NCBI GenBank assembly: GCA_965246715.1
Contig: CBDFFH010000002.1
Coordinates: forward strand, 224,001 to 288,000
From: Chamaesiphon sp.
Lineage (GTDB): Bacteria; Cyanobacteriota; Cyanobacteriia; Cyanobacteriales; Chamaesiphonaceae
Reading direction: 5' to 3'
Length of the DNA stretch: 64,000 nucleotides
Within the stretch, counting starts at the first letter, position 1; each line of letters begins with the position of its first letter. The notes below the pieces were generated by a model. It searched no databases and was not told where the DNA came from. It saw only the letters and a program-made list of their open reading frames with translations. Shown in pieces: positions 10,435-64,000 of this stretch. The position numbers were made by a program, and so were the translations under genes.

Positions 10435-10598
10435 CTCGGTTAGTGAAAATGATCGAGATGTAAAATTATAAGTTAAATTGTTCATTCGGTCATTTTCCGA
10501 TCCAACTTCTGCCGCATATCCCGTTCGCATAGAGTCGGCTTTGCCAAAAAGAACTCTCACCATGTAATTTATTCTAAGCTGCCTAATATTTTATCGTC

Positions 10599-11135: not shown

Positions 11136-11341
11136 AAATGTCGATCGTGCCAAAGTGGGATTTCTCCCTGTAATAGGTTTGAGGCTCGATCGATCGGTAT
11201 TGAGGAGCATCTTTATATCCTGTTGACATTATCGATCGATTAGCTTGGGTTTAGTCGATCGTGTCGTGGTTAATTCGATCGTTACAATATTTTTGGTGAC
11301 ATTAATACGCGATCGATTTTGCTTATATCACTCTACAACTG

Positions 11342-11405
11342 TTAATTTGAAGCCATAGGGTTTCGTCCCAATTCTTCGCGTAACACTCGTCTCAAAGTTG
11401 ATTCT
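11342..11405 (-). pseudogene. C-terminal remnant resembling a BrnA/CopG-type antitoxin
   Basis: ...ESTLRRVLREELGRNPMASN* lies between repeat copies 1 and 2; family resemblance is from memory. Confidence 0.4.
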
Positions 11406-11552
11406 AGTAGAATTTCTCCCTGTAGGTTGGGTTGAAGCCCGCGAAACCCAACAATCCCAGTGTTTGAGGCTCGATCGATTGCTATTGAGGAGCATCTTTG
11501 TACCCTGTAGGAATGATCGATCGACATTAATAACGTTTAGTTTCGCTTGATT

Positions 11553-11972
11553 TTACTCGATCGTCCAATTTTCAACCAGCAGATTGGGTATTCGATCGAA
11601 ATCTCGTGCATTTCTCGATAGTAAGATACCTTGGTTTGCTAAAACGATCGAGGCAATACGTAAATCTTGAGTACCAACTCGAATTCGTTGTGACTTTAGC
11701 TCTCGATAGATAGATTGAGCTTCTACTGTAAACTGCAAGACTTCAAATTCAGACAATAACTTTACTGTTTCCGACAGCCATCGATAAGCATTAGCCAGTA
11801 CATCCCCATCTTTAGCCTCAGATATTTGGGCGAGTCTACCGCGCACTTGTTCCTCAACATTAATTGCGGTAGTCGTCAAAACGATCGACTGTTGTTGCAA
11901 TCTATCTATCAATACCGGATGATTCCTGCCATAGAGACTGAGATGGTCGGTATCGAAAACATAAAGTGTCAT
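11553..11972 (-). CDS. vapC: VapC/PIN-domain toxin
   Basis: YVFDTDHLS; IRVGTQDLRIASIVL; SRNARDF. Confidence 0.9.
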   Translation of the reverse strand: MTLYVFDTDHLSLYGRNHPVLIDRLQQQSIVLTTTAINVEEQVRGRLAQISEAKDGDVLANAYRWLSETVKLLSEFEVLQFTVEAQSIYRELKSQRIRVGTQDLRIASIVLANQGILLSRNARDFDRIPNLLVENWTIE

Positions 11973-12268
11973 ATTTCATCTTCGCACTCATTGGCAACTT
12001 GACGAATATGAACGAGTTTTTCGATTAGATCGTCGAAGGTTGGATCGTTCTCTAAAATACCCGCATACTGCATTGGCGTAGAATTAATCTTAGGTTCGAT
12101 CGAAATTGTCACAATCTTACCTGTTGACAATTGCGACTCTAACTCGGTTTTGGCATTAGCGATCGCTTCACCTTCTGTATTCCCATCAGCAGCGATAGAG
12201 GGGATTTCAAGTACGGAAGCAGTAAAACCCCGATCCGAACGACTTTTAACAAAAACTTGATACTGCAT
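11969..12268 (-). CDS. HicB-like-domain antitoxin paired with VapC
   Basis: FTASVLEIPSIAADGNTEGEAIANAK HicB-like N-terminus; 4-bp overlap with the toxin. Confidence 0.75.
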   Translation of the reverse strand: MQYQVFVKSRSDRGFTASVLEIPSIAADGNTEGEAIANAKTELESQLSTGKIVTISIEPKINSTPMQYAGILENDPTFDDLIEKLVHIRQVANECEDEI

Positions 12269-12539
12269 TTTTTAGCCTAAGTCTCAGTTATTACTAGTAT
12301 TGCATATTCATCCTGTAAATAGTCCGATTACCGACCGTACCTACGCGAACGAGTCAGGAGCGTTAGTAGCTAGATCTCTCTCCGTAGCTTGGATTGAGCC
12401 TTGAAGCCCGACAATTCCTGTGATTGAGGCTCAATCGCTGTTGAGGAGCATCTTTATCCTCTGTCGGAATGATCGATCGATTAGTTTGGGTTTGGTCGTT
12501 GGCGAAGCCTACCGGAGGTAATCGTTGTTGAGTCGATCG

Positions 12540-12954
12540 TTAGCAGCGAGTAATTTCGATCGTGTTTTGCGATCGCCCAAAACAGACATCAAATTCTCGA
12601 AAGAAGTTAGTTTGCCCAAGAATCAAAGGCACCTCAGAGGATTGTACCCAAGCAAATGCTAGACGAACTGATTCCAGATCCCCTATTTGAATATGCAGAA
12701 ATAAACCTCGTGCTTCAACCTTTGCAAGATTTCCAGCCAATGGTAAACGAACAGTTTGTCTCTCCCAAATTGCACCCAATTGTAACCCGATATCATAAGG
12801 CAATAGATTGACCGTAGAACCACTATCTAACAATGCATTCGCCGAGACAGCAAAGTTTGCATAATTCAGCTCGATCGGAATCATCGGTAATGCTTCATCG
12901 TCAGCAAAGGGAAACTCGTTCGCGTAGCGTACCGGAGGTAATCTTCCTAGACAT
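12540..12954 (-). pseudogene. Retropepsin-like aspartyl protease, frameshifted by a 22-nt insert
   Basis: ALLDSGSTVN and LILGQTNFF motifs; removing 12919-12940 restores ATG(12954) MSRKIEFPFADDEALPMIPIELN...; an internal ATG at 12884 could still give a short product. Confidence 0.8.
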
Positions 12955-13165
12955 GAGTAGATGCCTCTTGGTCATCCCGAATCATCTGCATCAGAACATT
13001 TGCAGCTTCTGTTGCATCGTAAGGCGACCAAACCGGATACTCTGATGCAGAAAAGATAACTTGTAACTCAGCATCTGGAACTTGCGCGGCTAGAAGTTTG
13101 AAAAGTGATAATTTGTCTGGCTGACTTAGATTGTTTACCAAAGGAATTACTTCAGCTAGAGACAT
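12947..13165 (-). CDS. Small hypothetical protein coupled to the aspartyl protease gene (antitoxin-like)
   Basis: 72 aa with YPVWSPYDA motif; overlaps the protease start. Confidence 0.7.
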   Translation of the reverse strand: MSLAEVIPLVNNLSQPDKLSLFKLLAAQVPDAELQVIFSASEYPVWSPYDATEAANVLMQMIRDDQEASTHV

Positions 13166-13388
13166 AGTTTAAACTCCCAGACCTACGACAATGCATCTAT
13201 CATAAGCGATCTGTGAGGTGTTGTCTAACAAACCCGTTGCACATCAACCGTGTCAAGTTTGGCTGCCTAAATCGGAGAAGTCATTAGTGAGATTTTCTCC
13301 CCGTATAAACCCAACACTTCCAGTGTTTGAGGGTCGATTAATTGCCATTGAGGAGCACTTTATATTCTGTCGAAATTATCGATCGATT

Positions 13389-13793
13389 TTATGCCAAAAA
13401 TAGTTTTGAGGGCAGGTTAAAACGATCGCTTAATTTTTCCGCTTGAGTAATATCGATCGATCTCTTGCCATCGATAACTTCAAGTACTCGATCGCTAGAG
13501 CCAAATATACCAACTAAATCTGCTGGCTGAACATCGTTCGCATCCATTAAATGTAGCAGTCGGCTGTGGGGAGTCGATAGATTTTGAGATGGATAATGTT
13601 CTGATTCAAATTTTTCAACTAAGATGACAAACAGATCGATTAACCGTTCTTCTTCACCGCTAACTGTCTCCTTACTCATTGATGTTTCGATGATTCCCAG
13701 TACCCGTTCGTATTCTGCTTGCGATCGAATTGGCTGCGGTAATACATCCGCTAAGAGATTGGCATAGGCTTGACGATTAAAAGTAAGGGTCAT
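13389..13793 (-). CDS. higA: HigA-family antitoxin (HTH)
   Basis: PQPIRSQAEYE; LVEKFESEHYP; C-terminal HTH VLEVIDGKRSI. Confidence 0.88.
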   Translation of the reverse strand: MTLTFNRQAYANLLADVLPQPIRSQAEYERVLGIIETSMSKETVSGEEERLIDLFVILVEKFESEHYPSQNLSTPHSRLLHLMDANDVQPADLVGIFGSSDRVLEVIDGKRSIDITQAEKLSDRFNLPSKLFLA

Positions 13794-14076
13794 TTTTCCA
13801 GTTATCCTTATCGTATTCGGCGTGAGTGAGAAAGTATTTAAAGTAGACTAGCTGCCTAGAATAGTTGATGGAAACAATCAGTCGATAGCGATTGCCTTTA
13901 ATGTTAAATACCGTAAAGTTTCCTACAGCTTCTGCGGAAGCATAGGTTTGTTGAACCTCTGTCAGGTTTTGCCAGGTTACAACTTTAACGATTTCATTCC
14001 AATCTTCAATTTGGGTAGCAATGTCGGAAAATTTAGCAGCAGCTTCCCACAACCTACTAATTGCAATGAGGTGCAT
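13777..14076 (-). CDS. higB: HigB-family toxin
   Basis: TVFNIKGNRYRLIV and LTHAEYDK; toxin-first gene order. Confidence 0.92.
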   Translation of the reverse strand: MHLIAISRLWEAAAKFSDIATQIEDWNEIVKVVTWQNLTEVQQTYASAEAVGNFTVFNIKGNRYRLIVSINYSRQLVYFKYFLTHAEYDKDNWKNDPYF

Positions 14077-14533
14077 ATTATCTGCGGAATTCTGGTCTAG
14101 TAAATAGTTTAACGCTAAATCGCACCTTTTTATGAGCGTTGGCGTTGGCGTAGCCTCTGCCTGAGCAGAAGCCGCGCCGAGATGTAATCGCTATTAATTC
14201 GGTTGAGCCTTGAAACCCAATAATCTCAGTGTTTGAGGCTCGATCGATCTCTATTGAGGAGTATCTTTATATCCTGTCGGAATTATCGAGCGATTATTTT
14301 GGGTTTGGTCGATCGTGGTTAATTCGATTGAGCCTTGAAACCCAATAATCTCAGTGTTTGAGGCTCGATCGTTGGCGAAGCCTACCGGAGGTAATCGGTA
14401 TTGAGGAGTATCTTTATATTCTGTCGAAATTATCGATCGATTATCTATTTCGAGGAACCCAACAATTTTAGTGTTTGAGGTTCGTTCGCATAGCGTACCG
14501 GAGGTAATCGATCGCTATTGAGGAGTATCTTTA

Positions 14534-15763
14534 CTCACATCTTGCACCAGAATATAAGTACTAGATTTAGATCGAGACTAATTCCAAGGCAAGACCCTGC
14601 GAGAGCAGAAAGTCTCGCTTCCGATCGATTTCTACTAAAAGTAAACTCACTGCGATCTGTGGCATTAACTGTTGAAGTGCCAGCTCAGATTCCTGTCTCC
14701 ACTCAGGCGGAAGGCTTACGTTTGAGGATAAATAGACCCAGTGGGTGAGTACAAAACTAATAAAGCTCAGAAGCAGCCAACGGTATACACCTAAAAGTGT
14801 TTGTTGACCGAAGCTAGCCAGCCCAAATCGATATTTAGCAGTCTTGAAAAATCCTTCAATTGCCCATCGACGACTGCCCCACCAAGCAATCGTACTGCCT
14901 TTAAGAGCGCGGGTCGAAATCACAAATCTTTTCTCCAACTTACCATCCCGTTTTAAGTAGAACCAGGAAGCCGTAACCACGCCCTCTAAACCTGATAGCT
15001 TAACTTGTTGACCCTTCTTGCCTAGCATCTTCATCTGTCTCCCATCTGCCAGTTTCCGGTTATTCGGTATACCAACAATTGCTTGATGACGAAGTTTTTT
15101 GACCCCGTTGAGGAATTCGACACTACTAAATCCAGTATCGGCTAATACTTGGACTCGAAAGCGGTAAGTGAGTTTCTTGGGCAAGGTGCGGAGCAATTTT
15201 AGCCCCAATTGAGCAGGAGTAGTTGTGCCTTTACCACGCCAGGAACGGAACGCCCAAGGTATTCTCCACTGTCCAACGACTAAGTACAGTACAACCAAAT
15301 GCAGTCCTCGCTTACCGTTGAGAATATGTATCAACGTTGCAAATGCTTTGAATTTCCCCCTTTTCTCCAATGTAGTCAGATCGATAATTACCTGCAAGTA
15401 AGGTCTTTGTCCTTTGGCTGTGTAATTACTCAACTGTTTCAAAATATGTTGGCGAGTCGTACGAATCACGGCTCTGGTTGGCCACCCATATTCATTGAAA
15501 AATCTGCTCAAAGCCGCAGGTGATTTAATCACCCCATGTTCTGGTAACATTTGACCATTCTTAGGTTCCATAAATAGAGCGAAACTAGCTTGGAGACTAA
15601 GTTTCTGATAGGGACTGGGCATCAGCTCTAACAACGTGTAGAGTATTAATTGGGCGTACGGGAGAATGGTATTCACTGTTCTCATCAATGTTTTTACACG
15701 CCCTTTTTCTCATATTTTGACTCCTGCGAAAATCAGTTGTTATGTACTGGTGCAAGATGTGAG
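14534..15763 (-). mobile_element. IS701-like insertion sequence inserted inside a cassette repeat
   Basis: 17-bp perfect IR CTCACATCTTGCACCAG / CTGGTGCAAGATGTGAG; 4-bp TSD TTTA (14530-14533, 15764-15767). Confidence 0.9.
14567..15688 (-). CDS. DDE transposase (IS701/IS4-like)
   Basis: IIDLTTLEKRG, LADTGF, RRWAIEGFFKTAK. Confidence 0.9.
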   Translation of the reverse strand: MMRTVNTILPYAQLILYTLLELMPSPYQKLSLQASFALFMEPKNGQMLPEHGVIKSPAALSRFFNEYGWPTRAVIRTTRQHILKQLSNYTAKGQRPYLQVIIDLTTLEKRGKFKAFATLIHILNGKRGLHLVVLYLVVGQWRIPWAFRSWRGKGTTTPAQLGLKLLRTLPKKLTYRFRVQVLADTGFSSVEFLNGVKKLRHQAIVGIPNNRKLADGRQMKMLGKKGQQVKLSGLEGVVTASWFYLKRDGKLEKRFVISTRALKGSTIAWWGSRRWAIEGFFKTAKYRFGLASFGQQTLLGVYRWLLLSFISFVLTHWVYLSSNVSLPPEWRQESELALQQLMPQIAVSLLLVEIDRKRDFLLSQGLALELVSI

Positions 15764-15935
15764 TTTATATCCTGTTGGAATTATCGATCGATTAGCTTTG
15801 GATTTTGTCGATCGCTTTGCCGACGTTTTTAGTCAGGGCTTGTAAGAGCGATCGATTTAAAAGCTTCTTAAATCGATCGCCATACCCCAACAACCAGTGA
15901 GTTATAATCGACATACGAGACTCAGAAACAACCGT

Positions 15936-16295
15936 ATGACTAGCAGCGAAATTAGCTATACCGAAGCACAGAGTAATTTAAGCGTTCTGCTCGATCGCGT
16001 AGCAGATAGCAAAGATATTATTATAGTCAAACGAGACGGCACCGATAAAAACGTCGCTCTCATTGCCGAAACAGATCTCAGCAGCCTCTTAGAAACGGTC
16101 TATCTACTGAGATCTTCCGCCAACGCAACTAGACTGCATCGGGCAATCGATCGAGCCAAACAAAGAGATCTCCAAGGCTACAGCCATACAGAACCAGAGA
16201 ACCCATCACAATCGATCGCTGCATTATGTGAGGAGTTAGGAATTGTGGCTCTTCACTACTTAGTATGCTCGATCGATAGCAAATGTGGCAAATAG
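15936..16295 (+). CDS. yefM: Phd/YefM antitoxin; C-terminus extended into ISL3
   Basis: SYTEAQSNLSVLLDRV; LETVYLLRSSANA; native end is ...EELGIVR* once the IS is removed. Confidence 0.85.
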   Translation: MTSSEISYTEAQSNLSVLLDRVADSKDIIIVKRDGTDKNVALIAETDLSSLLETVYLLRSSANATRLHRAIDRAKQRDLQGYSHTEPENPSQSIAALCEELGIVALHYLVCSIDSKCGK

Positions 16296-17682
16296 AAATT
16301 AATCAATATGTGAAATTGCCATAAAAGTGGAGTGATAATTGACATTGGGGGCATTTTGTTATTAAGTATAATCTAATTGAAAGCGATCTTGAGACAAACC
16401 AGAAGAAAATGCTCACCAAAAAGGAAATACAACTACTAACAGAAGTACTAAATCTAGCGGGAGTAAAAGTAAATGCCAAGCACCAACATGAAGGAATTGG
16501 AATAATTTTAGGAGTTGAGTCGAGCGAAAAAATAAGTGTTTGCCAACGCTGTGGTTTGAAAAGCGACAAGTTACACCAAAACCATCGGCAAATAATCAAA
16601 GATTTGGATTGGGGAGGGCAAGCGGTATTTTTAGAAATAAATAGAAGACAATTCAACTGCGAAAAATGCCAGAAACCATTTAGCGAAGAATTAGAATTTG
16701 TCAAGTCAAGAAGAAGATACACGAAAAGATTAGCAGATCGGATAATAGAAGAAGTATTAGCAGATGACATTAGGAGTGTAGCGAAGAAGGGGAAGGTAAC
16801 AGAGAAAGAAATAGAAAGAATGCTAAAGGATGCATCAGGAGATTTATCAAAAATAAAACCAATAGGATTAAAAAGATTAGGGATAGACGAAATAGCATTG
16901 ATTAAAGGGCAGGGAAAATATTGTGCAGTATTAATAGACATAGATCGTTCTAAATTATTGGCAATTATCGAGGGAAGAACCAAAGAAGAAATTAAGAAAG
17001 TCCTGAGAGAGTGGGGGTCAGAGGTATTAGAAGGAATCGAAGAAGTAAGCATAGACTTATGGCAGGGATATAAAAGTCTAGCAATAGAAATGATGCCAAA
17101 AGCTCAGATAGTAGCAGATCGATTCCATATAATGGTACAAATAAATCAAGAATTAGATGGAGAAAGAAAGAAGGAGAAGCGAAAAATCGAAGCAGAAATA
17201 AAGCAAGCAAAAACCCCAGAAGAAAAAGCGGAGAAAGCGGCTATATTAGCAGGAATAACTAATAGTAAGTATCCAATATTGAAAAACGAAGAAGACTTAA
17301 ATGAAGAACAGAAAGACAAGCTAGCTCAGGTAAAAAATGTATCAAGTCAGCTCGGAAAAATGCATCAATTGAAAGAGGATTTTCGAGAAATATTTGAGAA
17401 AAAGGAAAACTGGAATGAGGGATTACTAGGCTTAGGGGAATGGCTGTCAAAAGCTCAAAAATATTTTGTCAAAAGTCAAGGGACAATTTATCGATGGTTT
17501 GATGAAATACTGGCTTATTTTGACAATGGAACAACTAGTGGAGTAGTGGAGGGAATTAATAACAAGCTAAAACTAATCAAACGTTCAGCATATGGATTTA
17601 CTAATTTTGAGAATTTCCGAAATAGATGCTTGCTTAATTGGCACTTCAATCATTAATTTGGCATACTAACTAGTGAAGAGCC
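16247..17682 (+). mobile_element. ISL3-family insertion sequence
   Basis: 22-bp IR GGCTCTTCACTACTTAGTATGC / GCATACTAACTAGTGAAGAGCC (1 mismatch); 8-bp TSD GGAATTGT at 16239-16246 and 17683-17690. Confidence 0.95.
16409..17656 (+). CDS. ISL3-family transposase
   Basis: CxxC zinc finger, LGIDE, VSIDLW, DRFH, EGINNKLKLIKRSAYGF. Confidence 0.95.
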   Translation: MLTKKEIQLLTEVLNLAGVKVNAKHQHEGIGIILGVESSEKISVCQRCGLKSDKLHQNHRQIIKDLDWGGQAVFLEINRRQFNCEKCQKPFSEELEFVKSRRRYTKRLADRIIEEVLADDIRSVAKKGKVTEKEIERMLKDASGDLSKIKPIGLKRLGIDEIALIKGQGKYCAVLIDIDRSKLLAIIEGRTKEEIKKVLREWGSEVLEGIEEVSIDLWQGYKSLAIEMMPKAQIVADRFHIMVQINQELDGERKKEKRKIEAEIKQAKTPEEKAEKAAILAGITNSKYPILKNEEDLNEEQKDKLAQVKNVSSQLGKMHQLKEDFREIFEKKENWNEGLLGLGEWLSKAQKYFVKSQGTIYRWFDEILAYFDNGTTSGVVEGINNKLKLIKRSAYGFTNFENFRNRCLLNWHFNH

Positions 17683-17686
17683 GGAA

Positions 17687-18010
17687 TTGTCCGCTAAAAA
17701 GAAAGATAAAAATCGCTCTGAAAATTCTCAACCAGAAATAATTATCGTTCAAAGGCAGATTATTTTTGATGAAGATTTCCGAGAAGATTTGCAATGGTGG
17801 TATCGGCAAGGCGTTCAAAAAGCCAACAAAATACTCGATCTAGTAGAATCCATTTGTATAGATCCATTTTTAGGAATTGGTAAACCAGAACCACTAAAAT
17901 TCATGGAAGCAAATACATGGTCGAGAAGGATAGATTTAGAGCATCGACTAATTTATCGAGTTCAAAATGAATCTATTCAATTCTTACAAGCTCGTTACCA
18001 TTATGAGTGA
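17687..18010 (+). CDS. yoeB: Txe/YoeB toxin
   Basis: PFLGIGKPEPLK, WSRRIDLEHRLIY, ARYHY. Confidence 0.92.
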   Translation: MSAKKKDKNRSENSQPEIIIVQRQIIFDEDFREDLQWWYRQGVQKANKILDLVESICIDPFLGIGKPEPLKFMEANTWSRRIDLEHRLIYRVQNESIQFLQARYHYE

Positions 18011-18275
18011 GATTTTTTCCCGTAGGTTGGATTTAAGCCTGCGAAGCCCAACAATCCCAGTGTTTGAGGCTCGCTCGTTGGCGAAGCCTACCGGAGGTAA
18101 TCGCTATTGAGGAGCATCTTTAATATCCTGTTAAGATTATTGCTCGATCGATTAGCTGGGGTTTGGTCGATCGTTGTTGATTCAATCGATTGCCTCGATA
18201 CTTTACTCGTTGGCGGAGCCTCTCATGAGAGAATCGGGTAAAATTAGGAGGCTGTAGTAAATTGCGGTGTAAACT

Positions 18276-18518
18276 ATGACAGAACTGCTTCAACAGGTAA
18301 TCGCCCAAATCGAACAACTGCCAATCGATCGACAAGAGGCGATCGCGGCTCGGTTTCTGGCAGAATTGGCGGAAGAACAACAAGCTGAGAACGTATGGGT
18401 TGAAGATGTCCGATCGAAAATTGATGCTGCCATTTCAGCCTCAGAGCAAACGCCACCGATCGATGGCGAAACCTTCGTTAACCAAATTTTAGAGCGGTTT
18501 CAGCGCGATCGGGTGTAA
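18276..18518 (+). CDS. Putative antitoxin (ParD-like C-terminus)
   Basis: Small acidic ORF directly upstream of the RelE/ParE toxin. Confidence 0.7.
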   Translation: MTELLQQVIAQIEQLPIDRQEAIAARFLAELAEEQQAENVWVEDVRSKIDAAISASEQTPPIDGETFVNQILERFQRDRV

Positions 18519-18524
18519 ACATAC

Positions 18525-18824
18525 ATGAGTCTCTATGTTATTAACGTTCTTGCCAGTCGAGATCTGATTGAAATCGCTGACTACTTTGCTGAAACCAATG
18601 TAGAAGTAGGCGAACGATTTTTTAAAGAATTTAATAGCAAGTGTCAACAACTAGTTTCCTTTCCCAGCAGTGGTAAAAGCTATGGAGCAATTCGCCCAGA
18701 TCTCAGAGGACTATCTCTCGAAGGTTATATTATTTTCTACCGTATTCTCGATGATGGCATCGAAATCCTCAGAGTTGTTAGTGGTCGTCGTAATCTTCCA
18801 GCACTTTTTAGCGACCCAGACTGA
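18525..18824 (+). CDS. RelE/ParE-family toxin
   Basis: ASRDLIEIADYF; FPSSG; YIIFYR; IEILRVVSGRRNL. Confidence 0.9.
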   Translation: MSLYVINVLASRDLIEIADYFAETNVEVGERFFKEFNSKCQQLVSFPSSGKSYGAIRPDLRGLSLEGYIIFYRILDDGIEILRVVSGRRNLPALFSDPD

Positions 18825-19088
18825 TTAACTGAGTGGGTTTTCTTTCCGTAAGTTGGGTTGAAGCCCTCGGAACTCATCAATCTCAGTTTTGAGGCTCGTT
18901 CGCATAGCGTACCGAAGGTAATCGTTGGCGAAGCCTACCGGAGGTAATCGCTATTGATGAGTATCTTTACATTCTGTTGAAATTATGGCTCGATCGATTG
19001 GCTTTGGTTTAGTCGATCGTGGTTGATTCGATCGATCTTTGGTGTGATGGTTTTGGGATCGATCGATACGAATGACGGTCGAACGAGA

Positions 19089-19448
19089 TTATTGGAGTAA
19101 GATATCTGCCGGAATATCCAACTGACCGTGAAGTGCGCGAATCATTTCTAGCGTTAAAGTTTGACGTTTAGACATTACTTCTGACACTAAATATTCGCTA
19201 CCAATAATTGGAATTAGATCGGCCTTCAATCGATCTGACTGTTCTAGTCGAAACTCGATCGCGGCGATCGGATCTGGTAATCCGATTGGAAAATATTTAT
19301 CTTCATATAACTCAATCAGAGTTGCCAGTACTTCTAATTCATCAGCTTCAGGTGTATTCGGCTAAGATGACATCAAAGCTCCCGCTCGTTCCAATGCATC
19401 CTGATAATCAGTTTCAGTTTTAATCGGTCTAATTAAAGCAGTATTCAT
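19089..19448 (-). pseudogene. HigA-family antitoxin with internal stop
   Basis: MNTALIRPIKTETDYQDAL...SS*PNTPEADELEVLATLIELYEDKYFPIGLPDPIAAIEFRLEQ...; TAG at 19362-19364. Confidence 0.85.
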
Positions 19449-19572
19449 ATTAACTCTACATCAATGGTATCGTAATCTTGATGAGTTCCAACAAATCGGA
19501 TAAAAATAATCTGTGTGGATCGCGTTGAATTAGCCACAGAAATACATGAGTATCCAGCAAAAACCGACCCAT
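19445..19572 (-). pseudogene. Deletion junction: VapC 5' end fused out of frame to HigB 3' end
   Basis: MGRFLLDTHVFLWLIQRDP from 19572, then in another frame QIIFIRFVGTHQDYDTIDVELI* ending at 19445. Confidence 0.8.
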
Positions 19573-19784
19573 TACATATATTCCTGTAAATCATCTAAAG
19601 GCGCATTAAAATCATCAGACATCCACACCTCTTCCTTCCAGATGCCGAAAGCATTTTTTCGATCTAGTGGGGGTGTTTGCACCGACTGATTATGCTTTGC
19701 AACCAAACCCTCAATATATTGCAGGGCTTCCTGTTGCACCGACTCTGGTAGTCGCTGAATTTGTTCGAGGAGTGTTTGCTCCAT
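19572..19784 (-). CDS. DUF2281-type antitoxin
   Basis: LPESVQQEALQYIEGL; FGIWKEEVWMSDDFNAPLDDLQEYM. Confidence 0.8.
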   Translation of the reverse strand: MEQTLLEQIQRLPESVQQEALQYIEGLVAKHNQSVQTPPLDRKNAFGIWKEEVWMSDDFNAPLDDLQEYM

Positions 19785-20157
19785 ACGATTATCAAGGGCA
19801 ATAAATATGTACCCGTATTTTAGCTCAAACCTATGGAAGCGCACTCATAAGTATCAAAGTGAAATAATTTAGCTAGGGATATTTCTCCCTCTAGGCTGAA
19901 TTGAAGCCTGCTAAACTCAACAATCCCAGTGTTTGATGCTCGATCGTTGGCGAAGCCTACCGGAGGTAATCGCTATTGAGGAGCATCTTTATACCCTGTC
20001 GAAATTATCGATCGATTAGCTTGGGTTTGGTCGTTGGCGAAGCCTACCGGAGGTAATCGTCGTTAATTCGATCGCGAAGCGTGGGCTTTGCCCAATCGTT
20101 GCAACATTTGTGGTAACATTGAGAAGATATCGATCCTCTATCTAGCCAAAAATACTT

Positions 20158-20379
20158 ATGCTGCTAAATATCAAAAAACGCGGTAACTCACTGAGTATCA
20201 TTGTCCCCAAAGAAATGGCAACGAGTATGAGTGTTGAAGATGGCGATACCCTCTTCGCCACCAAAACACCATCGGGATATGAGATTTCCGCATACGAGCC
20301 TAGTTTCGCAGCTAAAATGGAAGCGGCTCGACAAGGAATGAAAAAATATCGCAATGCCTTAATCGAGTTAGCAAAATGA
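20158..20379 (+). CDS. AbrB/MazE-type antitoxin
   Basis: KKRGNSLSIIVPKE; KYRNALIELAK. Confidence 0.88.
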   Translation: MLLNIKKRGNSLSIIVPKEMATSMSVEDGDTLFATKTPSGYEISAYEPSFAAKMEAARQGMKKYRNALIELAK

Positions 20380-20783
20380 GCGAACCTTGTTGGCTAGATA
20401 CTCGTGATGTTTGTGCCATTCACAATGAAATCATTGTTCAATCTGGTGGTGATGCTGGCATCCTCAATGAAGGTGCTTTGGAATCAACCTTAAATAAACC
20501 CAAAAATCTGTATTGCTATGCTGATGAAATAACTTTATTCCCATTAGCAGCCGCTTATGGCTATGGGCTTGTCAAGAATCATTGTTTTATCGATGGTAAC
20601 AAAAGGATCGCGCTGATTGCTGTGTACACATTTCTATCGATTAATGGAATCGAACTGACAGCATCAGAAATTGATGCTGCAAATTTTTTCTTGGAGCTAG
20701 CAGCAAGTCAGGAAAATCAAGAAGAAGGAATGAGTAGATTGGTAAACTGGCTGCAAATCAATAGTGAGATTTCTCCACTGTAG
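20376..20783 (+). CDS. doc: Doc/Fic-family toxin
   Basis: HCFIDGNKR Fic motif; ATGA overlap with the antitoxin; stop codon lies inside the downstream repeat. Confidence 0.92.
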   Translation: MSEPCWLDTRDVCAIHNEIIVQSGGDAGILNEGALESTLNKPKNLYCYADEITLFPLAAAYGYGLVKNHCFIDGNKRIALIAVYTFLSINGIELTASEIDAANFFLELAASQENQEEGMSRLVNWLQINSEISPL

Positions 20784-21271
20784 GCTGGGTTAAGCCTCGA
20801 AAACCAACAATTCCAGTGTTTGAGGTTCGCTCGTTGGCGCAGCCTACCGTTAGGTAATCGCCGTTGAGTAGCATCTTTTATACCCTGTCGAAATTATCGA
20901 TCGATTACCTATTTCGAGAAACCCAACGATTCCAGTGTTTGAGGTTCGTTCGCATAGCGTACCGGAGGTAATCGATTGCCATTGAGAAGCATCCTTATAT
21001 CCTGTCAAAATTATCGATCGATTAGCTTGGGTTTGGTCGTTGGCGAAGCCTACCGGAGGTAATCGTCGTTAATTCGTTGGCGTAGCCTCCGCTTTGCGGA
21101 ATCGATCTTTGGTGCGATGGTTTTGGGATCGATCGCCTATGGCACCCTACGCGATCGATGTTGATGACGATCGAGCTAAATTCACAATCGCTCATGATAT
21201 AATTATACTAGCCAATTGTAGACAATCGATGTTGGATATTTTGGCTCAACTACTTAACTTCAGGACAGAAT

Positions 21272-21514
21272 ATGAGCGATCGAGTAGTTACCGGAACGAT
21301 CGACAAAGATGGTGTTGTTACTTTTGACGAGGAAGTAACGATCTCCGAGCCTCAAGCCGTTACCATAATTTTCAATGCTGGTATTGAAGCTAGTAAACCT
21401 GAACTCAAAACGCAACAAGAGCTAACAGATAAAATCATTCAAGGCTTACACGAAGCAATTACAGGGAAAACAGTACCTCTGTCAGCATTATGGGACGAAG
21501 TAGATGCAGACTGA
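21272..21514 (+). CDS. Orphan antitoxin-like protein; partner toxin truncated
   Basis: Ends ...LHEAITGKTVPLSALWDEVDAD; an overlapping ATG at 21504 (MQTDETQPP) runs straight into a repeat. Confidence 0.6.
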   Translation: MSDRVVTGTIDKDGVVTFDEEVTISEPQAVTIIFNAGIEASKPELKTQQELTDKIIQGLHEAITGKTVPLSALWDEVDAD

Positions 21515-21586
21515 TGAGACGCAACCTCCTGTTAGGTAATCGCCATTGAGGAGCTTCTTTATACCCTGTCGAAATTATCCTCGATT

Positions 21587-63553: not shown

Positions 63554-63594
63554 AATGGATATATCTGCTACCTGCGATGCTCTTTCGAGAGGCT

Positions 63595-64000
63595 ATGCCA
63601 ACGAGTGTGAATAAATCAAGGCGAATTTTACCGATCGCGCGCGAGGTAGTTGCTGAAGCTGGAGGGACATTTATCCTGGTATTCATCGGTACCGGAGCGG
63701 TAATGGTCAACCAAATCAGTCAGGGTGCGATTACTCATCTGGGGATTAGCATGGTCTTTGGGGCGATCGTCGCAGCTTTGATTTATGCGCTCGGACATAT
63801 CAGCGGTGCCCATTTCAACCCAGCGGTAACTCTGGCGTTCTGGCGCAGTGGGTTCTTTCCTGGCGATCGAGTGGTGGCATATATTCTGGCACAATGTGTT
63901 GGCGCGATCGCCGCTTCATTATTACTGAAATCGACATTTGGCACCATTGCCAATCTTGGAGCCACACTACCCCTGAATGGTAACTGGCATCAATCGCTAA
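63595..64000 (+). CDS. MIP/aquaporin-family channel (5' part), probably arsenite-related
   Basis: EAGGTFILV, HISGAHFNPAVT; frame open to the window end; follows arsR. Confidence 0.88.
   Translation, partial: MPTSVNKSRRILPIAREVVAEAGGTFILVFIGTGAVMVNQISQGAITHLGISMVFGAIVAALIYALGHISGAHFNPAVTLAFWRSGFFPGDRVVAYILAQCVGAIAASLLLKSTFGTIANLGATLPLNGNWHQSL

Follow-up and report, generated by a model that had tools for sequence, protein, structure and literature searches.

What are the tiny double hairpins that interrupt CGATCG sites in a toxin-antitoxin cassette array of a Chamaesiphon species, and how did they get there? The array lies in a stretch of 64,000 nucleotides (nt), referred to here as the window (contig CBDFFH010000002.1, positions 224,001 to 288,000), which belongs to a genome of 6.1 Mb (G000). 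A first-pass annotation of the window had described the inserts as double-hairpin elements resembling SDR5, a small dispersed repeat (SDR) of Nostoc that enters the HIP1 octamer. Here, we report that the elements are real and mobile and that they are a variant of SDR5, and we tentatively read them as micro-inserts that move as folded single-stranded DNA.

A structure-based search of the whole genome, using a two-stem filter between CG and ATC, returned 219 matches compared with approximately 14 expected by chance (scaled from a sixth-order Markov control with 7 matches in 3 Mb). The 208 canonical copies begin with TTGGC (149), TTCGC (52), or ATCGC (7) and are 24 nt (121), 22 nt (67), 23 nt (10), or 25 nt (10) long. 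Their build is the two-stem structure originally described: a two-base leader is followed by hairpin 1 (GGC or CGC, a loop, and the complement) and by hairpin 2, which closes at the last base. When cores were searched for without loop or flank constraint, 240 of the 277 recovered had GNA as loop 1, with all four middle bases represented. In the 22-nt class, 40 of 43 non-duplicated copies have GNA as loop 2, 39 of them on a CC-GG stem. The 24-nt class (n = 116) has a five-pair stem that varies with compensation, and its loop 2 is GNA in 40 copies and pyrimidine-flanked in 58. Seven hairpin-2 sequences are found with both hairpin-1 types. The compensatory stem changes seen in the window are confirmed by pair tables; because they also arise in copies that are passively carried by a miniature inverted-repeat transposable element (MITE), they alone are no proof of selection for mobility.

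Insertion is precise at CG^ATCG. In a flank-free core search, CG was on the left in 221 of 235 cores and ATC on the right in 174, and CG preceded 175 of the 182 cores followed by ATCG against a background of 38%; the target is thereby shown to need CG on the left and also ATC(G) on the right. The full HIP1 octamer GCGATCGC hosts only 11 of 192 copies. It occurs 2803 times in the genome compared with 4633 occurrences of TCGATCGA, an excess that has been reported as a trait of Chamaesiphon (PMC4390886). T is favored before CG (58% versus 40%, p = 1e-8) and G is underrepresented after ATCG, which makes recognition of the target asymmetric. Where the alignment is good, empty sites show CG^ATCG, or differ from it by one to two bases, and carry no duplication, in agreement with the initial description. 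Seven of the 208 copies start with ATC, formally resembling a short duplication, but the other 201 start with TT, and the leader is therefore part of the element and not duplicated target. Secondary targets are the GNA loop of another copy (7 cases) and CG^AAC inside a MITE (24 filled, 37 empty). Longer homology between donor and target was also considered and is without support, as elements of exact identity share no longer flanks (p = 0.15; p = 0.025 for elements with the same hairpin 2).

Mobility was examined by comparison with 400 kb, picked for element density, of the 6.8-Mb genome of a relative (G001), the flanks of the two species being mostly 82%–96% alike. These 400 kb contain 71 elements, of which 18 could be aligned in G000: 13 of these sites were scored as empty, 4 as filled, and 1 as other (by eye, one of the "filled" rows proves to be empty; one "empty" row aligned poorly, and two are near-duplicates). 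In the reverse direction, 16 of 218 elements of G000 had flanks in the 400 kb, and 11 of these sites were empty, 3 filled, and 2 other. Filled and empty orthologous sites, on which the SDR5-like reading of the window had been made to depend, were also found within the window itself. Contigs from three public runs span site 12919 minus the 22 letters (one with a single clean gap, two with split gaps that add up to 22), the nested site 14139 is empty in G001 (GCG^ATCG), and site 18210 is empty in relatives L044 and L046 and carries a diverged insert in L034, L035, and L042. Whole-array alignment of public runs showed no 22-base indel among the 12 listed of a total of 41. Outside the array, 176 of 193 copies have unique flanks. 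The elements are real and mobile.

SDR5 is reportedly found only in the full octamer GCGATCGC and is said to possess a conserved two-hairpin structure with compensatory changes (attributed to Elhai et al. 2008). The Chamaesiphon elements share with it the insertion between bases 3 and 4 of HIP1, as their empty orthologous sites show, the size class, and the two-hairpin structure with compensatory changes. Moreover, five genomes of family f6, probably Nostocaceae, contain 21–205 matches, mainly 21-nt elements at GCG^ATCGC alongside 24-nt forms, and these 21-nt elements have the same two-base leader, GGC-GNA-GCC hairpin, and second hairpin ending at ATCG. The differences lie in length (mostly 22 and 24 nt rather than 21, with the leader TT), in target (the CGATCG core, the full octamer hosting the few copies counted above), and in host range. 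SDR5 has been described as entering HIP1 directly after its third base (PMC4390886), and PMC5861425 reports no SDR-like repeat outside Nostocaceae, a limit beyond which the elements are amplified across Chamaesiphon. As such, the likeness drawn by the first-pass annotation holds for insertion point and build, and fails for length, octamer, and host family; since these published limits are exceeded, we class the Chamaesiphon elements as a variant of SDR5 rather than plain members.

All 27 Chamaesiphon genomes carry the element, at 16–231 copies, compared with zero in a reversed-pattern control, and 42 of 45 public records that carry the exact commonest element are Chamaesiphon. Among 299 other genomes of the phylum, over half of them from other classes, 44 have 1–14 copies of the Chamaesiphon version. 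A looser pattern, applied to 80 genomes that included G300 and G324, gave at least 30 matches in 20 genomes (element-rich) and at most 3 in 18 (element-poor); lineage-specific versions of the same element are listed for G203 (family f4) and for G221 and G082 (family f3). G001, G269, G121, G203, and G082 are examples of element-rich genomes, and family f7 provides genomes that are rich in HIP1 but free of elements. We also observed that two small replicons of G026 (C1 and C2) hold 23 of its 77 elements in 367 kb, approximately five times the chromosomal density, and that eleven IMG/VR contigs (L092–L102) have one pattern match each. Sister elements with an identical left half are present in G000 (C21:77071, C22:166615, C46:43255, C51:3632 and 3893, and C52:116490); their right ends and targets differ (a 14-nt second hairpin, or TACG next), and we take them to be possible relatives of SDR4 or SDR6.

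With regard to how the elements move, we favor, at a probability of roughly 0.45, SDR5-family micro-inserts that travel as folded single-stranded DNA and are cut and joined by a trans-acting enzyme. When the strand with the GNA loops becomes single-stranded, bases 4–10 would fold into a GCGNAGC mini-hairpin and the second hairpin would form, drawing the flanks together. A single-strand cleavage-and-transfer enzyme, for which HUH chemistry would be the likeliest type, would measure three bases from the mini-hairpin, and the piece, released or copied, perhaps as a closed dumbbell, would be joined into one strand of another CG^ATCG. Replication would then fix the insert, and selection would retain the 24-nt form where it falls in genes and the 22-nt form chiefly in spacers. 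The array would become crowded because its spacers are non-coding, target-rich, mutually copied, and likely protected from deletion by toxin-antitoxin genes.

The GCGNAGC DNA mini-hairpin has been described as extraordinarily stable and nuclease-resistant, and the biological cases described for it are phage and plasmid priming sites as well as the N4 promoter, with no mobile insert among them (PMC13037366). Of 64 GCNNNGC loops, GNA alone forms it, the stem has to be GC-GC or CC-GG (shown for a GAAA loop), and the octamer melts at 39 °C as RNA compared with 76.5 °C (PMC13037366). Hairpin 1 of our elements has this core, and the CC-GNA-GG form is found as hairpin 2 in the 22-nt class. The short stems fit the GCGNAGC/CCGNAGG rule, to which long stems do not need to conform, and all lineage versions listed have base 4 as the first base of GCGNAGC, which suggests that folded single-stranded DNA is the working form of the element and that the hairpin is the point from which it is measured; in the main G082 version, the mini-hairpin has just a two-pair stem. 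Off-centre, duplication-free insertion into a palindrome also points to one-strand chemistry, because a symmetric double-strand cut would be expected to duplicate or delete AT. From these features we infer a single-stranded DNA intermediate.

Several results weigh against this reading. In the 24-nt class, only 1 of the 40 copies with GNA as loop 2 has an allowed mini-hairpin stem. The published RNA melting comparison concerns a tetraloop octamer and not a triloop (PMC13037366), and calculated DNA and RNA folding energies do not discriminate, since the parameter sets nearly lack a term for loop sequence. The co-occurring enzyme that the first-pass annotation proposed to look for did not emerge: when 265 proteins of 16 loci (14 rich in elements, 2 next to integrase fragments) were scanned against Pfam, no mobilizing enzyme common to the loci appeared. 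RAYT scored above cut-off in 18 of the 20 element-rich genomes and in 7 of the 18 element-poor ones; for reverse transcriptase (RVT_1), the figures were 20 of 20 and 10 of 18. Both comparisons are confounded by kinship and genome size. Neither enzyme is thus singled out, and movement through RNA is one of the main rival readings. The junctions fall between G and T and between A and A, in a target opened between G and A, as opposed to C and T or C and A for studied RAYTs (PMC8266576). Replichore bias was absent from the complete G001 chromosome (best split 91/164, p = 0.75), on which the origin is not placed; dnaA (PF08299, the DnaA C-terminal domain) was not found in near-complete Chamaesiphon genomes G001 and G026 and is present in 10 of 14 controls. 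No excision product or circle was seen, contigs being the only material examined. Finally, a MITE of approximately 200 bp with internal hairpins has 61 copies in G000, 24 of them with an element at CG^AAC, and the next A is changed to C in nearly all filled copies. On the tree of these MITE copies, filled ones are interspersed with empty ones (13 changes, of which well-supported branches require at least 6), and the stems of filled copies differ by paired substitutions, a pattern that suggests conversion between copies and stem correction in place.

One alternative would require no element-specific transposase. A nick at CGAT^CG, the insertion point on the other strand and the cut position of PvuI-type enzymes, would free a 3' end to pair with the ATCG beside a folded donor; host polymerase would copy the 22–24 bases plus CG, and the strand would return to its own template. 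Such nick-primed copying would account for the need for both flanks, the missing duplication, and the DNA mini-hairpins, and the observed mixing of hairpin-1 and hairpin-2 types is what template switching would give, just as the MITE-borne copies change in place via paired substitutions. However, the homology would amount to just 4+2 bases, with no longer flanks shared by identical elements (p = 0.15), related cores at CG^AAC and in GNA loops lack the ATCG primer match, and the fixed three-base distance to the mini-hairpin resembles a protein ruler. We regard this explanation as unlikely. A route through RNA, in which a transcript folds into the double hairpin and a reverse transcriptase of the group II intron type copies it into a nicked CGATCG, is in our estimation about as unlikely. 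The stems are able to fold as RNA, target-primed copying requires no strand bias, and reverse transcriptase is present in every element-rich genome (Spearman 0.45 over 80 genomes, uncorrected for kinship and genome size), but the enzyme is also found in more than half of the element-poor genomes, no sense bias exists in genes, and the short stems keep a DNA-specific stability rule, the two-pair stem of G082 being presumably very weak in RNA.

A third alternative denies the elements any mobility of their own at present. Old inserts could have spread by duplication or conversion of host repeats, MITEs, and imported DNA: array repeats do share filled sites, 24 of the 61 MITE copies contain the element, and the low-copy occurrence in other genomes of the phylum may be import. 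Still, the uniquely flanked copies outside the array and the orthologous sites, most of which differ between species, amount to unique, lineage-specific insertions that largely refute this account, and we hold it to be very improbable. A host-kept function in transcript stabilization, termination, or control of toxin-antitoxin cassettes would fit the density of elements in array spacers of 15 relatives (37 versus 1.2 expected) and their preference for the repeat strand (29 versus 8), but positions differ between species, 22-nt copies break genes, and orientation is random outside the array; we consider it equally improbable. Returning to folded single-stranded DNA, its most far-reaching form would make SDR5-type inserts the smallest single-stranded DNA transposons known: dumbbells of 21–24 bases with two nuclease-resistant mini-hairpins, excised and joined scarlessly into CGATCG by an unrecognized cyanobacterial enzyme, adding eight residues to dozens of proteins per genome, and with an integrase-free, cassette-shuffling toxin-antitoxin array of Chamaesiphon as their main sink. 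We consider this whole combination rather doubtful.

Comparison with other small mobile DNAs gives partial likenesses. Fungal mitochondrial double-hairpin elements and GC clusters are tiny and GC-rich, show filled/empty polymorphism, and have no known enzyme, although they differ in sequence, target, and kingdom. With REP/REPIN-RAYT systems (REP, repetitive extragenic palindrome) and IS200/IS605 (PMC8266576, PMC6006769), the elements share small hairpin DNA, insertion without target duplication, and the plausibility of single-strand chemistry; the commonest loop reads GTAG. In REP, however, GTAG sits at the hairpin foot, whereas here it sits in the loop and its second base is free. The RAYT genes of G000 have GTAG REPs of their own, and 2 of the 6 RAYT loci each have a single canonical element close by. 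Unlike IS200/IS605, the elements have both flanks fixed, show no replichore bias (with the origin unplaced), and are not linked to TnpA. A MITE identity for the element itself was rejected, as its ends are not inverted repeats and its empty sites lack duplication.

We called 4973 genes (77% coding), and half of the element copies fall within them. Open reading frames (ORFs) contain 80 of the 121 24-nt copies and only 29 of the 87 that have another length (p = 3e-6); the frame stays open in 76 of those 80, more than the expected 86% (p = 0.009). The 24-nt form thus adds eight codons in frame, and the 22-nt form disrupts genes. The 22-nt copies avoid genes, and those in ORFs are mostly in short or accessory ORFs; splicing-out of 22-nt copies is accordingly unsupported. 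Sense and antisense copies in genes show no bias (33/47 for 24 nt, 13/9 for 22 nt). Occupancy of non-coding sites is flat over local CGATCG density (0.8%–1.5%, p = 0.36), and preferential insertion into foreign DNA therefore finds no support, even if element-rich regions carry plasmid and insertion sequence (IS) cargo. Coding occupancy is 2–3 fold greater in CGATCG-poor DNA, as relaxed selection would give, and we ascribe the coding and non-coding pattern to selection after insertion.

The array itself (Table 1) comprises PIN/VapC, Phd-YoeB, Doc, RelN-type, and other cassettes together with two IS; the intervening CGATCG-rich repeats measure about 95–200 bp and lie on the same strand. The repeat is nearly restricted to the gltB-htpG locus, occurs up to six times in tandem, and is often headed by a GTAG-type REP hairpin. 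The two IS, DDE_Tnp_1 and ISL3, lie at 14535–15760 and 16240–17685; several near-identical copies exist elsewhere in the genome, and the ISL3 copy interrupts a Phd-YoeB pair. Arrays of relatives (L027–L046) have the same repeat and cassette families in an order that differs between species. An integron was rejected as the identity of the host array: no TIGR02249 match above cut-off was found in G000, attC folding not having been searched for, and no integrase adjoins the cassette arrays. Two N-terminal integron-integrase-like fragments below the family cut-off lie on other contigs of G000 (C51:439–801 and C27:168721–169047). Three public RNA runs had only 0.07 of words in common and are silent on expression.

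All 15 forward copies of the first-pass annotation, each preceded by CG and followed by ATC, its degenerate inverted copy, and its empty sister site at 11184 are present in the sequence, and every entry in its list is real, the nested pair having been overlooked. Its impression that none lie outside the array was mistaken and arose because only the window had been viewed: just 15 of the 208 canonical copies are in the array and 193 are elsewhere, one of them within the window (last row of Table 1). The proposed comparison of densities nevertheless revealed strong enrichment, 24–31 fold and genus-wide, of elements that are not array-specific. Filled non-coding CGATCG sites number 14 of 50 in the array versus 78 of 6686 elsewhere, and the 37 elements of the relatives lie in 49.5 kb (18 array pieces; 20 loci were fetched and 2 without the repeat excluded). 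Since the same filled sites recur from repeat to repeat, the array counts cannot be treated as independent; judged by eye, the 18 window copies represent approximately 10 separate insertions compared with 0.6 expected. The crowding would be explained most simply by neutral spacers that are rich in targets, copied from one another, and retained by addiction genes. Two decayed element-like remnants lie at the array ends (10524–10547 and 21513–21540).

Table 1. The host array and the element copies in the window (coordinates are window positions).
Feature	Coordinates	Strand	Remark
Toxin-antitoxin cassette array	11159..21586	+	Between gltB and htpG; host hotspot
Degenerate 21-nt element	12329..12349	-	First stem one base short; same variant present in relatives' arrays
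22-nt element in array repeat	12499..12520	+	Site TTTGGTCG^ATCG
22-nt element	12919..12940	+	Frameshifts aspartyl-protease-like ORF (minus strand, ~12540-12954)
Nested pair	14139..14186	+	24-nt element (14145-14168) within GNA loop of second 24-nt element
22-nt element in array repeat	14372..14393	+	
22-nt element	14485..14506	+	Stem type CGC/GCG
22-nt element in array repeat	18078..18099	+	
23-nt element	18210..18232	+	Upstream of antitoxin-like gene
Two 22-nt elements	18899..18946	+	18899-18920 and 18925-18946; neighbouring overlapping CGATCG sites
22-nt element in array repeat	19947..19968	+	
22-nt element plus 24-nt AT-leader element	20034..20094	+	20034-20055 and 20071-20094
23-nt element	20834..20856	+	
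22-nt element	20949..20970	+	Stem type CGC/GCG
22-nt element plus 24-nt element	21040..21100	+	21040-21061 and 21077-21100
23-nt element	63579..63601	-	Outside array

To our knowledge, the manner in which repeats of 21–27 bases move has been an open question since 2008. In the open literature, to which our search was confined (subscription journals being outside its scope), we found no later paper on the SDR5 mechanism, its range beyond Nostocaceae, or a mini-hairpin reading, SDR5 being touched on only incidentally in the papers retrieved, and as late as 2026 it was described as a repeat of unknown function (PMC13756078). The Chamaesiphon lineage offers hundreds of copies, exact filled/empty pairs, and a relaxed six-base target for this question. 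The sequence rule, by which a DNA mini-hairpin lies a constant number of bases away from the cut, makes the choice between DNA and RNA testable, and an enzyme that inserts short DNA scarlessly into a six-base site, should one be found, would have practical use as a tool. For the organism itself, approximately 76 genes in one genome gain eight in-frame residues, which makes these elements a little-noticed source of protein variation.

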